46,837 bases of DNA from a phage. Below the pieces are notes generated by a model. The model worked only from the letters and a program-made list of their open reading frames with translations, did not search any database and was not told where the DNA came from. Made by a program: the position numbers and the translations under genes. The stretch lies in the sequence record PZ502447.1; one strand, 5' to 3'. Shown here in pieces: positions 20,074-22,558 of this stretch (positions are counted from its first letter, which is position 1; each line of letters begins with the position of its first letter).

Positions 20074-20078
20074 AAATA

Positions 20079-20099
20079 GCCCCATTACGGGGCTTTTTT
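20079..20099. terminator. bidirectional intrinsic terminator between convergent operons
   Basis: Hairpin GCCCC-AUUAC-GGGGC with a T6 run on the plus side and an A-run on the other side; sits between the plus-strand stop at 20073 and the minus-strand stop at 20085. Confidence 0.65.
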
Positions 20100-20471
20100 G
20101 TTTTTCCTGAATATCATTAAGAGCAGAATGATGATGACGCAAAACATGATTCCACTCCCAATCCACGGGATTGCAGACGAATCATTGTTGGTGATTTCAA
20201 TCTTCTCAGCCGTGATTGTTGATGCCTTGATTGAGTTATCAGAAGTCTTTTTACCGCTTGAACTATCAAGAGTGTCAACCTTAGAGTTCTTCACTTCAGC
20301 CTTTGCGCTGGAACTTGAATCAACCTTATTAGTTAGCCCTACTCCAACCTTGTTATTCTCCGCACCTGCTTGAGCGCTAATCTCTGGCTTACTACCAATC
20401 AACCCGGTCAGCGCAGATGTTGCCGAGCAACCAGAAAGTATAATTACCGCAGCAATTAACGCAGCCTTCAT
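20085..20471 (-). CDS. unimolecular spanin (u-spanin, T1 gp11-like)
   Basis: 128 aa; N-terminal lipoprotein signal with lipobox LSGC and a single C-terminal transmembrane helix (IMFCVIIILLLMIF), the architecture described for the T1 u-spanin; last gene of the lysis cassette. Confidence 0.7.
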   Translation of the reverse strand: MKAALIAAVIILSGCSATSALTGLIGSKPEISAQAGAENNKVGVGLTNKVDSSSSAKAEVKNSKVDTLDSSSGKKTSDNSIKASTITAEKIEITNNDSSAIPWIGSGIMFCVIIILLLMIFRKNKKAP

Positions 20472-20953
20472 TTACCCACCCCACTTAAGCATAATTTAAT
20501 CTCCTCGTTGCGCCTGTTAACGAGGCCTTTAACAACTTTTAGCTTGCCATTTACTCGAGCTTTATTCCAGGAGGCGAGAGCATTACAACCCTCTTCAATC
20601 TTGCCCTGATTAATCAGCCTTACTGCCGTTGACTTCCTCATTGCAGCGCCACCAACGTTGTAGCTAAAGCTGATTAACGCCGCCCTTGTCTGTGGAGAGA
20701 TTGGGTAAGTTACTGCATCCTGCACATACTTTCCATGAATCTGGATGTGTTTCTCCAGTAAGTTCCTGCACTCCCTTGCACTGTACTTTTTACCCCACAC
20801 CACATCAGGACCAGTGATACCTGAACAAACCGTAGGAATGCCTGCAATGTCCATGTAAGGCTTGTATTCCACACCTTCTACTAGCTCAATAATCGGAGCT
20901 GCGATGTATATTGCTGCTGCCGTCGCTGCACTAATTACCAGCTTCTGCTTCAT
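20468..20953 (-). CDS. SAR-endolysin (lysozyme, phage 21 R-like)
   Basis: 161 aa; N-terminal Gly/Ala-rich signal-anchor-release helix, then LEGVEYKPYMDIAGIPTVCSG and YNVG motifs matching lambdoid R-type lysozymes. Confidence 0.85.
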   Translation of the reverse strand: MKQKLVISAATAAAIYIAAPIIELVEGVEYKPYMDIAGIPTVCSGITGPDVVWGKKYSARECRNLLEKHIQIHGKYVQDAVTYPISPQTRAALISFSYNVGGAAMRKSTAVRLINQGKIEEGCNALASWNKARVNGKLKVVKGLVNRRNEEIKLCLSGVGK

Positions 20954-21216
20954 TACTTACTCCTAATATTGATAGCTGTTTTTAAATCTCCTAACTCTAG
21001 CGCTTTCCTGATTGCCTGGCTGTCCTTAAACTTCCAATAAGCCCCCCACAAACCGAAAACGATTAGAGCTATAAGACTGATTATTGCGATTGTCATTTGA
21101 CCCGTTGCAGCGCCAGTTACAGCAGCGCCGCCAGTTGATGCCGTAGCGGCGTTAATTACTTCCCTCATTTGATCACCTTTAAATGCTAATTTGTCAATAG
21201 ATAGTGCAAATATCAT
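20953..21216 (-). CDS. holin (pinholin candidate)
   Basis: 87 aa; hydrophobic helix MTIAIISLIALIVFGLWGAYW followed by a charged C-terminus; directly upstream of the SAR-endolysin gene. Confidence 0.6.
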   Translation of the reverse strand: MIFALSIDKLAFKGDQMREVINAATASTGGAAVTGAATGQMTIAIISLIALIVFGLWGAYWKFKDSQAIRKALELGDLKTAINIRSK

Positions 21217-21240
21217 ACATTAGGCGGTGGCAAATTATAA

Positions 21241-21268
21241 GCAAAAAAAGGGGAGCCAAAAGGCCCCC
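21241..21268 (-). terminator. intrinsic terminator
   Basis: Minus-strand GC-rich bulged hairpin GGGGAGCC-AAAA-GGCCCC followed by a U7 run (plus-strand A-run), 3' of the small ORF at 21299..21469. Confidence 0.45.
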
Positions 21269-21298
21269 CGCATGCAAATCTATGTTTTTGATGTGTTA

Positions 21299-21469
21299 AT
21301 CTGCGATAATAAATTCCACCAAAGAGCCATCAATCGGCGCAAGGATGTGAGTCATATCGTCACCGTAAACTTTGTAGTAACCGTCACCTAGAGACTCTGC
21401 GCTGTACGGCTGGTTTTCGGTGAACGGCAGTGTCTTTGAGTTGTTTTTAACGCAGTATAATTTAGTCAT
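21299..21469 (-). CDS. hypothetical small protein (57 aa)
   Basis: Hand-translated ORF MTKLYCVKNNSKTLPFTENQPYSAESLGDGYYKVYGDDMTHILAPIDGSLVEFIIAD with AGAGGA SD; lies between a promoter module and a terminator. Confidence 0.45.
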
Positions 21470-21540
21470 TTTTGAATCCTCTGTTGTTTTCGATGTAGTA
21501 ATTATGCCGGATTACTCCGGCGATTGTTTAGCAATTCGTG
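21470..21540 (-). promoter_or_regulatory. conserved promoter module
   Basis: Minus-strand AATAGCACGAATTGCTAAAC, then CATAAT, then leader CATCGAAAACAACAGAGGA, then ATG of 21299..21469. Confidence 0.55.
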
Positions 21541-22088
21541 CTATTTATTACGTGCATTACCAAAGCAGAGGTTCCATCAATATCACCATCTACAACATGA
21601 ACGTCAATTTCTCTTGCGCAGACACCGCGAATGTAGGAGCGGCTATCTCCATCAAAAGTATAGCCAGGCCTAAAAAGTCTAATCAAAGTAACTTCAACCC
21701 CTGAATCAATGAGAGTATTAATCTCGCTAGCGAAGCCACCATCAGCACAGATATAGCAACCATCACCAAGTGATTGCGCTAGCCTTTTACCGAAAACATC
21801 ATCACCAAAGACTGGCTTCATAACTGACTCACTAATCCAAATCATAAATTCACGAACCGTCATTCCACCAAGAAATTCATGTGGTGATTCTTTGTACTCT
21901 CGGTCATCGTAATTCTTAATAAATTCATCAAACTCATCGCTTGATAGTATTCCTTTTGCAACATTAAACATTGGTGACTTGAATGAAACCTTATCCTTGC
22001 AAATTCCAAGATTAACAATGATATCTGCAACTGTATCTTTTCCAGCACCAGGGGGTGCATTAAGGATGATTAACTTTTTCATTTTCAC
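21528..22088 (-). CDS. deoxynucleoside monophosphate kinase-like P-loop kinase
   Basis: 186 aa; P-loop NAPPGAGKDT and overall resemblance to T4 gp1 dNMP kinase (GKDT..AD, RPG motifs). Could alternatively be a polynucleotide kinase domain. Confidence 0.55.
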   Translation of the reverse strand: MKMKKLIILNAPPGAGKDTVADIIVNLGICKDKVSFKSPMFNVAKGILSSDEFDEFIKNYDDREYKESPHEFLGGMTVREFMIWISESVMKPVFGDDVFGKRLAQSLGDGCYICADGGFASEINTLIDSGVEVTLIRLFRPGYTFDGDSRSYIRGVCAREIDVHVVDGDIDGTSALVMHVINSTNC

Positions 22089-22558
22089 TCTCCGTGAGAT
22101 TCGCAGTCTTTAGGTGGTACTTTATATTCACAAACTGACATTACAGTATATCCGCAATTCCTTAGGTGACTGATAACATTTGGATTATCCTCAAAGATTA
22201 TTACATTTTTCTTATCACCTTTACATAAATCATTTAACCACTTTTCTTTAATTATGTAGTCTTTGCTATTGTCAAATCGACTCCTCATATATATTCCATC
22301 ATACTCAATATCATTACACTGAAGCCATTCAAGCGTCATACATTCGACTTCGTCACTTCTTGAAGTCATGATGTAAACTGGCGATAACTCAGCTAACGCA
22401 TTCATCATGTTTATCATTGGAATTATCGGTGAATCTCCAGAACAGGCTCTATTGTAATCACTCCAACTTGAAGTCAAGTGAAGGTCACTAGATGGTAAGA
22501 GGTGGCTTCTATGTTCATTGTTAGCAATAGTTCCATCAATATCAAACACGTAAATCAT
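22085..22558 (-). CDS. HAD-superfamily phosphatase
   Basis: 157 aa; N-terminal FDIDGT motif (DxDGT, HAD motif I); start overlaps the kinase gene. Confidence 0.6.
   Translation of the reverse strand: MIYVFDIDGTIANNEHRSHLLPSSDLHLTSSWSDYNRACSGDSPIIPMINMMNALAELSPVYIMTSRSDEVECMTLEWLQCNDIEYDGIYMRSRFDNSKDYIIKEKWLNDLCKGDKKNVIIFEDNPNVISHLRNCGYTVMSVCEYKVPPKDCESHGE

Follow-up and report, generated by a model that had tools for sequence, protein, structure and literature searches.

What kind of lysis system does this phage DNA encode at positions 20085-21216, and does its small holin open pinholes or large holes? A sequence-only reading of the locus had proposed a lysis cassette with these limits, consisting of a holin, a SAR-type lysozyme and a unimolecular spanin (u-spanin). 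We analyzed it in the context of the window, i.e., the whole 46,837-nucleotide stretch of record PZ502447.1. In the ORF list of the window the proposed limits correspond exactly to three consecutive ORFs, coding for 87 aa (20953-21216), 161 aa (20468-20953) and 128 aa (20085-20471), all on the minus strand, which the earlier reading had left unstated. The features of the locus are as follows.

20078..20094, both strands: bidirectional intrinsic-terminator-like hairpin AGCCCC-ATTAC-GGGGCT (terminator scan)
20085..20471, minus strand: putative unimolecular spanin, T1 gp11 homologue, 128 aa (PHROG 1804 'Rz-like spanin', E=2e-46)
20468..20953, minus strand: endolysin, GH24 (T4-type) lysozyme, 161 aa (Pfam Phage_lysozyme PF00959, E=4e-35)
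20953..21168, minus strand: holin, T1 gp13 homologue, 71 aa from the conserved start (PHROG 2877)
21169..21216, minus strand: in-frame upstream extension of the holin ORF, 16 codons, carrying AAGGTG (21179-21174) and an invariant TTGACA (21197-21192)
21240..21269, minus strand: terminator-like hairpin GGGGGGCC-TTTT-GGCTCCCC followed by T7, between the DUF7244 gene and the holin gene (terminator scan)
21296..21469, minus strand: DUF7244 (SH3-clan) protein, 57 aa, T1 gp14 homologue (PF23896, E=4.7e-28, full length)

Very probably the cassette serves a T1-like siphophage (Drexlerviridae, Braunvirinae) as its late lysis operon, in which a holin, a SAR lysozyme and a u-spanin would act in three successive steps.

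Gene order, translational coupling and operon boundaries

Profile matches of all three cassette proteins are far above chance. The genes are translationally coupled: the holin stop codon overlaps the endolysin start codon in the sequence TAATG, the endolysin stop overlaps the spanin start in the sequence ATGA, and Shine-Dalgarno (SD) sequences precede all three starts, that of the holin in its 71-aa form. The proposed order of holin, SAR-type lysozyme and u-spanin is backed by homology to and synteny with T1 gp13, gp12 and gp11. In T1 (NC_005833, 42878-43982) the order is the same, the proteins have 71, 162 and 133 aa compared with 71, 161 and 128 aa here, and each of them is homologous to its counterpart (55% identity to gp13, 47% to gp12 and 37%, over full length, to gp11). 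The arrangement around the T1 genes is also similar. On one side a terminator overlaps the spanin end, and beyond it lie a gp10-like gene in convergent orientation and a helicase gene; on the other side are a gp14 (DUF7244) gene and a terminator. Further upstream the two phages differ: beyond the DUF7244 gene we find one kinase-like gene that falls into no recognised family and another gene of the polynucleotide kinase/phosphatase type, whereas T1 has an HNH endonuclease gene. The solved structures closest to the endolysin, phage 21 R and RrrD, also speak for reading the cassette as holin, SAR lysozyme and u-spanin. As published for the T1gp11 spanin family, every member except two is encoded together with a pinholin and a SAR endolysin in one cassette (PMC6139136).

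The terminator-like hairpin at 20078..20094 overlaps the last spanin codons and has a T run next to it on either strand; the lysis operon and the plus-strand gene that converges on it would both end here. A terminator is annotated at the equivalent place in T1, where it overlaps the end of gene 11, and in SU57. The upstream hairpin at 21240..21269 is kept in Braunvirinae relatives, while T1 has a different hairpin with a T run there. Between this upstream terminator and the holin gene, a consensus scan combined with alignment detected no convincing sigma-70 promoter. A TATAAT at about 21234-21239, noted on manual reading, was set aside as a promoter for having no usable -35 element. The invariant TTGACA was set aside as a -35 element: no usable -10 element lies at 16-18 nt from it, and the transcription start would fall inside the coding region. 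A minimum-energy RNA fold hiding the holin SD, with GGUG paired to an upstream CCACC, found no support, its z-score being only -1.8 and the CCACC being unconserved in relatives.

The holin and the type of hole

The 87-aa ORF matches PHROG 2877 ('holin') with E=6e-36, with the profile spanning only residues 17-87, and it has no match to any Pfam holin family. The protein is 93% identical to the SU57 holin. The ATG at 21216, from which the length of 87 aa had been claimed, has no SD sequence and is poorly conserved: in an alignment of eight related phages, six have ATT or ATC at this position, and AN_ECEAS is the only one of the eight with an ATG. The 16-codon extension is, moreover, broken in relatives by an in-frame stop (phiA2-1) or a 5-nt indel (SU57, Rtp). 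The downstream ATG at 21168 is preceded by the AAGGTG ribosome-binding site, and this position is ATG or GTG in all 29 Drexlerviridae-type cassettes examined. The claimed length has to be given up: judging from start-site conservation, the holin is almost certainly a protein of 71 aa starting at ATG 21168, and the extension is probably an untranslated leader. Both an 87-aa holin and a dual-start holin/antiholin pair were ruled out on account of the SD-less, unconserved ATG together with the stop and frameshift in relatives.

After its first Met the 71-aa holin has no second Met before residue 25. Its residues 4-21 (nt 21106-21159) are very weakly hydrophobic, with 78% G/A/S/T, a Kyte-Doolittle value of 0.99 and a summed Hessa dG of +6.2. 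Residues 25-45 (nt 21034-21096) form a strong transmembrane helix (summed Hessa dG -2.0), and the C-terminal tail is basic. With hydrophobicity this low, the first segment may fail to enter the membrane at all. It contains, however, GG and AATGQ motifs that are invariant across Tunavirinae, Braunvirinae and others, which argues that the segment has a function.

The label 'pinholin' fits this hydrophobicity profile and the published annotation, and draws on topology-like features and on the assignment of T1-family holins to class II pinholins (PMC11447400, PMC6139136, PMC13164509). The phage 21-type holins S21 68 and EssD offer a comparison. EssD, from prophage DLP12, also has 71 aa, and the holins share a weak first and a stronger second hydrophobic segment, a basic C-terminal tail and a gene directly upstream of that of a SAR endolysin. 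The first segments of the holin and EssD have dG values of +6.2 and +6.5, respectively, and the second ones of -2.0 and +0.5. The holin differs from S21 68 and EssD in its loop of about 3 residues between the segments and in having no dual-start motif. A BLASTP comparison with EssD aligned just 33 residues, all in the second helix, and at E=0.05 was not significant. With no match to a Pfam holin family either, sequence kinship to phage 21-type pinholins was rejected; the holin stands outside the S21 family and is at most a functional analogue of phage 21 S.

That phage 21-type holins have no sequence similarity to this protein, and that only one of its segments has a negative insertion energy, are points in favor of a conventional single-helix holin (N-out, C-in) that makes large holes, with the rest of the cassette as described. 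The T1 RefSeq record likewise gives a single transmembrane domain for gp13. A SAR endolysin would still be freed in this case, since any holin triggering depolarises the membrane. The presence of a SAR endolysin alone does not predict a pinholin, because P1 Lyz, which is a SAR endolysin, works with a large-hole holin. The spanin allows for either type as well: in the u-spanin phages whose endolysin could be identified, it is of the SAR type in 29 and canonical in 17, and according to Kongari et al. u-spanins function with either holin-endolysin type (PMC6139136). A large-hole holin is harder to reconcile with the G/A/S/T-rich N-terminal segment, whose invariant motifs are kept across subfamilies and whose hydrophobicity matches that of EssD TMD1, and with the pinholin annotation of the family in all three publications cited above. 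In the literature searched, we found no experimental report on the hole size of T1-family holins. We consider a large-hole holin unlikely, if the best of the alternatives, and infer that the holin probably forms pinholes.

The small gene upstream of the holin lies outside the limits of the earlier reading (20085-21216). Its product matches the DUF7244 profile with 97.5 bits, compared with a gathering cut-off of 27, and is 40% identical to T1 gp14 and 79-86% identical to the Rtp and SU57 proteins. The gene adjoins the holin gene in 24 of the 29 Drexlerviridae-type cassettes, and the protein has no hydrophobic N-terminus or export signal. This SH3-like gene has been proposed to be an accessory of the Drexlerviridae lysis module (PMC13164509). 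The published proposal for the protein is cell-wall binding. A different role, as a fourth lysis component acting in the cytoplasm, e.g., by binding the conserved basic C-terminal tail of the holin and tuning lysis timing, seems to us rather improbable. In its favor are the lack of an export signal and, if the holin is indeed a pinholin, the barrier that small holes would set to the passage of a folded protein into the periplasm ahead of lysis.

The endolysin and the spanin

Searches against solved structures gave phage 21 R (3HDE, E=5e-27; also 3HDF) and DLP12 RrrD (4ZPU, E=1e-27) as the best matches to the endolysin, which is 43% identical to RrrD. No residue of the catalytic triad E26-x8-D35-x5-T41 (codons at 20876-20878, 20849-20851 and 20831-20833, respectively) varies when the endolysin is aligned with T1 gp12 and RrrD, or across 27 distinct relatives. 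E26, D35 and T41 occupy the positions of the RrrD/R21 triad. The earlier description of the motifs as lambdoid R-like is correct in the sense of the phage 21 R / T4 lysozyme type and incorrect for lambda R, which is a transglycosylase.

The endolysin begins with MKQK followed by LVISAATAAAIYIAAPII (residues 5-22, nt 20888-20941). This segment is 50% G/A/S/T, contains no Cys and has a summed Hessa dG of +1.2. The corresponding segment of RrrD has a dG of +0.3 and 61% G/A/S/T, while true anchors have values of -4.2 (spanin) and -2.0 (second helix of the holin). Phage 21 R and RrrD share with the endolysin the GH24 fold family, the E-x8-D-x5-T triad and a Cys-free, G/A/S/T-rich anchor of similar hydrophobicity. 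They differ from it in that the linker between anchor and catalytic Glu is 6 residues shorter here and in the partner proteins, which in this phage are an unrelated holin and a u-spanin (DLP12 has the two-component spanin RzpD/RzoD). N-terminal anchor and triad thus agree with the claimed SAR-type lysozyme and match R21-type SAR endolysins, named class II in a 2026 preprint (10.64898/2026.09.09.750462); by this match, the SAR helix would remain uncleaved and be released from the membrane.

The endolysin could instead carry an ordinary Sec signal peptide, be soluble in the periplasm after cleavage and be restrained otherwise than by tethering. MKQK makes a classic n-region, the Ala-rich stretch after it an h-region, and possible A-x-A sites are present. 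The Braunvirinae phage endolysin 57_3Lys, which differs from ours at one position in the first 20 residues and has the same E26, D35 and T41, bears indirectly on the matter: its near-identical N-terminus was called a signal peptide by SignalP 6.0, and azide blocked the lysis that it causes in cells without a holin (preprint 10.64898/2026.09.09.750462). The azide sensitivity shows export and is equally compatible with a SAR anchor and with a cleaved signal. What speaks against cleavage is the lack of a polar c-region, the hydrophobic stretch being followed directly by Pro20 and then by the catalytic Glu26, and the HMMER alignment to phage 21 R, which reaches into the N-terminal segment (query 11-24). 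Sun et al. are reported to have found in 2009 that R21 keeps this segment, which on refolding becomes part of the active enzyme. Premature lysis would, in addition, be expected from a periplasmic lysozyme that is constitutively active. We regard a cleaved signal as very improbable and keep to a predicted SAR endolysin.

The third protein has both elements of the single-gene spanin that had been claimed. Its lipoprotein signal, judged by pattern and hydrophobicity, occupies residues 1-15 (MKAALIAAVIILSGC, then S) with the lipobox LSGC at residues 12-15 (nt 20427-20438), identical in T1; Cys15 is followed by Ser, and not Asp, at +2. The C-terminal segment WIGSGIMFCVIIILLLMIF (residues 103-121, nt 20109-20165) is strongly hydrophobic, with a Kyte-Doolittle value of about 2.7 (2.74) and a summed Hessa dG of -3.9 to -4.2, and is followed by the tail RKNKKAP. 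The periplasmic domain in between has about 87 residues and no Cys between Cys15 and the helix. In 84 of 88 related loci L[ST]GC is followed by Ser, the other four being variants (LYGC, ICGC) or parser errors; all 88 proteins end in a hydrophobic segment and a basic tail, and a periplasmic Cys occurs in none, two parser errors set aside. A lipobox, a C-terminal helix and the absence of periplasmic Cys, as found in the 88 loci, are the published properties of u-spanins (PMC6139136). The signal peptide is 7 residues shorter than that of T1 gp11.

The T1 gp11 family was delimited at 40% identity over 40% of length (Kongari et al. 2018). The direct pair with T1 gp11 (37%) is just under this threshold, and identity to the Rtp and SU57 proteins, themselves gp11 homologues, is 75-78%. 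Membership of the spanin in the family holds through linkage to these other members. T1 gp11 complements lambda RzRz1 (PMC6139136). The alternative-frame ORFs of the cassette, read by eye, contain no Cys preceded by a lipobox, and a hidden two-component spanin with an embedded Rz1-like ORF was rejected. That the 128-aa protein is another phage lipoprotein, e.g., one for superinfection exclusion like T5 Llp or Cor, as records calling homologues just 'lipoprotein', 'hypothetical protein' or 'putative membrane protein' would allow, is scarcely credible given the complementation by the homologous T1 gp11, the constant position as the final cassette gene, coupled by the ATGA overlap to the endolysin and followed by the terminator, and the pairing of an inner-membrane helix with an outer-membrane lipoprotein signal in 88 of 88 loci, a pair that an exclusion lipoprotein does not need.

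A proposed three-step lysis model and the relatives of the cassette

With a pinholin, a SAR endolysin and a u-spanin, lysis would proceed in three steps, one per layer of the cell envelope. The 71-aa holin would first build up in the inner membrane. If it behaves like the phage 21 pinholin, the weakly hydrophobic segment at its N-terminus would exit the bilayer, and the strong second helix would oligomerise into small holes, collapsing the membrane potential at a programmed time. The 161-aa lysozyme would have been exported by Sec during the latent period and kept tethered and inactive by its uncleaved N-terminal SAR helix. Depolarisation would free this helix, the enzyme would refold like phage 21 R, and its E26/D35/T41 site would degrade the peptidoglycan. 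In the third step the u-spanin would act, lipoylated on Cys15 and with its C-terminal helix remaining in the inner membrane. Because of Ser at +2 the lipid end is predicted to be sorted to the outer membrane, so each molecule would run through the mesh of peptidoglycan. With this mesh degraded, the u-spanin may be able to collapse or to oligomerise and would disrupt the outer membrane, fusion of the two membranes being the probable route.

The T1-like assignment proposed earlier is valid for the family: the most similar records belong to the Drexlerviridae, subfamily Braunvirinae, while T1 itself is a member of the Tunavirinae. Over the whole cassette, AN_ECEAS (PP944860) and ES (OR466728) are 97.1% identical to our phage in nucleotide sequence; elsewhere they are less close, a 25-kb query aligning over 70% of its length at 92% identity. 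The spanin, endolysin and holin of Escherichia phage AN_ECEAS are 100%, 99% and 96% identical to those described here. The upstream ATG is common to both phages, and the AN_ECEAS holin gene is annotated as 264 nt. Klebsiella phages of about 43 kb (e.g., NTUH-K2044-K1-1), presumably KP34-like podophages, have a homologous spanin with 47-51% identity, L[ST]GC, Ser at +2 and a C-terminal helix. They differ in gene order, with the spanin first and, after about 270 nt, an endolysin that is 27-34% identical, and have no homologue of the holin or of the DUF7244 protein.

The u-spanin architecture had been described as rare. It is, in fact, universal in T1-like phages, and homologues of the spanin occur in 1126 phage records; the core lysis module is present in 508 of 522 Drexlerviridae (PMC13164509). 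The cassette is the standard three-gene lysis module of T1-like coliphages, already well documented and ordinary. It confirms that the window comes from a T1-like (Drexlerviridae, Braunvirinae) phage, and its significance lies in little beyond correct annotation. The records of the closest relatives should be amended at three points: the holin starts at the conserved internal ATG and has 71 aa; the product of the gene after the endolysin, given as a mere 'hypothetical protein' in ES and AN_ECEAS, is the predicted u-spanin; and the small gene upstream of the holin is the accessory gene for the SH3-like DUF7244 protein.

Organization of the lysis cassette

Three consecutive minus-strand ORFs in the window have limits identical to those of the holin, endolysin and spanin genes proposed in the sequence-only reading. 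The observation was confirmed and its interpretation supported, with four corrections, which concern the length of the holin, the rarity of the spanin architecture, the pinholin status and a fourth gene.

Features of the cassette and its surroundings (window positions)
20078-20094, both strands: bidirectional terminator-like hairpin at the end of the operon, facing a convergent plus-strand gene
20085-20471, minus: spanin gene (ORF, 128 aa)
20468-20953, minus: endolysin gene (ORF, 161 aa)
20953-21216, minus: holin ORF (longest ORF, 87 aa)
21250-21269: terminator-like hairpin ahead of the holin, between it and the DUF7244 gene
21296-21469, minus: DUF7244 (SH3-clan) gene, 57 aa, T1 gp14 homologue (E=4.7e-28), outside the coordinates of the sequence-only reading
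21528-22088, minus: P-loop kinase-like ORF, 186 aa, no Pfam match, labelled ATPase in relatives
22085-22558, minus: PNKP-type HAD phosphatase, 157 aa, like the kinase-like ORF upstream of the DUF7244 gene

The holin stop and endolysin start overlap in TAATG, and the endolysin stop and spanin start in ATGA. At 44.4% G+C, the cassette is level with the window (43.9%).

Spanin and endolysin

The 128-aa protein matched PHROG 1804 'Rz-like spanin' (E=2e-46). As judged by lipobox pattern and hydrophobicity, it carries both the lipoprotein signal and the C-terminal helix ascribed to it earlier: the N-terminus, MKAALIAAVIILSGC followed by S, has the same lipobox as T1, with Ser at +2, and the C-terminus is WIGSGIMFCVIIILLLMIF-RKNKKAP (Kyte-Doolittle 2.7, summed Hessa dG about -4). 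The comparison set of 88 loci comprised 80 fetched related viral loci and annotated phages. A C-terminal hydrophobic segment with a basic tail was present in 88/88, and L[ST]GC-S in 84, the other four being variants (LYGC, ICGC) or parsing errors; parsing errors set aside, no periplasmic cysteine was found in the 88. The non-canonical lipoboxes LYGC and ICGC, standing in place of LSGC in L016 and L074, may represent functional variants or stem from errors in sequencing. A lipobox, a C-terminal TM segment and no periplasmic Cys are u-spanin properties listed by Kongari et al. (PMC6139136), who found complementation of lambda RzRz1 by T1 gp11 and whose largest u-spanin family is that of gp11. 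The architecture, earlier called rare, is not rare in this lineage: tblastn homologues occur in 1126 phage records, and a 2026 survey reports an exonuclease-holin-endolysin-spanin module in 508/522 Drexlerviridae (PMC13164509).

Spanin homologues with 47-51% identity (56% in L087, over a shorter match) were also detected in ~43-kb Klebsiella-phage-like contigs (L020, L022-L065, L067-L071, L073, L075-L077, L081, L082 and L085-L087; match mostly at 2501-2875). There the spanin comes first, followed by a ~270-nt gap and an endolysin only distantly related to the one here, and no homologue of the present holin was found in the set. This combination of a related spanin with different surroundings shows that the spanin gene has moved between unrelated lysis cassettes.

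The 161-aa protein matched Pfam Phage_lysozyme (E=4e-35). Its best solved relatives were RrrD, the SAR endolysin of prophage DLP12 (4ZPU, E=1e-27), and then phage 21 R (3HDE/3HDF, E=5e-27); the latter alignment reached into the N-terminal hydrophobic segment. The catalytic triad of R21 and RrrD aligns with E26, D35 and T41 (E-x8-D-x5-T), which are invariant in 27 distinct relatives. Residues 5-22 (LVISAATAAAIYIAAPII) are 50% G/A/S/T, without Cys. Their summed insertion energy of +1.2 is close to that of the RrrD SAR helix (+0.3) and far from those of true anchors of the same cassette (-4.2 and -2.0).

The endolysin 57_3Lys of a Braunvirinae phage has the same E26/D35/T41 and differs at one position in its first 20 residues. 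Expressed alone, it lysed cells, and azide blocked lysis (2026 preprint, 10.64898/2026.09.09.750462), which shows holin-independent, Sec-dependent export and is compatible with either a retained SAR anchor or a cleaved signal peptide. SignalP calls the near-identical N-terminal segment of 57_3Lys a signal peptide; however, the R21 homology continues through the anchor segment, a polar c-region is absent, and Pro20 and Glu26 come straight after the hydrophobic stretch. For these reasons cleavage is much less likely, and a SAR anchor, as predicted from sequence, much the more likely.

Holin and upstream genes

The holin ORF matched PHROG 2877 'holin' (E=6e-36). The 87 aa stated earlier are the longest ORF rather than the likely protein. 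No ribosome-binding site lies ahead of the ATG at 21216, this codon is ATT/ATC in 6/8 aligned related phages, and the upstream extension contains an in-frame stop in phiA2-1 and a 5-nt indel in SU57 and Rtp. The ATG at 21168 has AAGGTG ahead of it, lies where T1 gp13 and the PHROG profile begin, and has an ATG or GTG equivalent in 29/29 Drexlerviridae-type cassettes examined. We therefore take the holin to be 71 aa long. A Shine-Dalgarno-like sequence precedes all three starts of the cassette. GenBank holin CDS lengths are discordant (216, 264 and 294 nt). A perfect TTGACA (21192-21197, minus), 23 nt 5' of the holin ATG, is invariant in 8/8 aligned Braunvirinae relatives; no usable -10 hexamer was found 16-18 nt after it, and it may be a promoter element, an operator or a chance occurrence.

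The first segment of the 71-aa holin (residues 4-21, 78% G/A/S/T) is very weak (dG +6.2) and the second (residues 25-45) strong (dG -2.0). EssD, the phage 21-type holin of DLP12, also has 71 aa, its segments scoring +6.5 and +0.5. GG and AATGQ motifs in the first segment are invariant across subfamilies, which suggests that this segment has a function. Three papers label T1-family holins as pinholins (PMC6139136, PMC11447400, PMC13164509); against this, the T1 RefSeq record for gp13 says 'single transmembrane domain', and the literature searched contained no hole-size experiment for T1-family holins. From the EssD-like profile and the annotation we infer, reasonably, that the holin probably works like a pinholin, whereas its placement in the family of S21, the phage 21 pinholin, fails, since its sequence is not significantly similar to that of EssD and matches no Pfam holin family.

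The lysis module includes a fourth gene, DUF7244, directly upstream of the holin beyond the terminator-like hairpin and beside the holin in 24/29 Drexlerviridae-type cassettes examined. A recent proposal makes DUF7244 a standalone SH3 accessory in the lysis module of Drexlerviridae, where it would bind the cell wall (PMC13164509). The 57-aa protein lacks an export signal, which is hard to square with such a role should the holin form pinholes and nothing larger. Just seven Drexlerviridae genomes combine kinases with SH3 (PMC13164509), so the arrangement here is a minority one.

Relatives of the cassette and of the phage

Cassette DNA is 97.1% identical to that of Escherichia phages ES and AN_ECEAS and 77-88% identical to that of other Braunvirinae (TR1, CY1, IME542, SU57, Rtp etc.), in several of whose records the trio is labelled holin, SAR endolysin/lysozyme and u-spanin. 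In the two closest GenBank records, AN_ECEAS (L001 3186-3572) and ES (OR466728), the u-spanin is a mere 'hypothetical protein', and the ES cassette bears a 'tail tip protein' label under the matched stretch. These labels are errors in public annotation.

Against window positions 10001-35000, ES and AN_ECEAS show 92% identity over only 70% of the 25-kb query, and Christensenvirus members and phiA2-1 (no genus assigned) 83-85% over ~55%. The phage probably represents a species of its own, in a Braunvirinae genus that has yet to be named.

The T1-like assignment made earlier holds at family level. Holin, endolysin and spanin are 55, 47 and 37% identical to the products of T1 (NC_005833) genes 13, 12 and 11, and the neighbourhood is syntenic: a gp14 homologue and a terminator upstream, a terminator overlapping the spanin end, and a gp10-like convergent gene and a DUF3987 helicase downstream. 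As a module the cassette was known before: deposited phages carry a nearly identical one, and the T1 prototype, to which it is homologous, has been studied by experiment.
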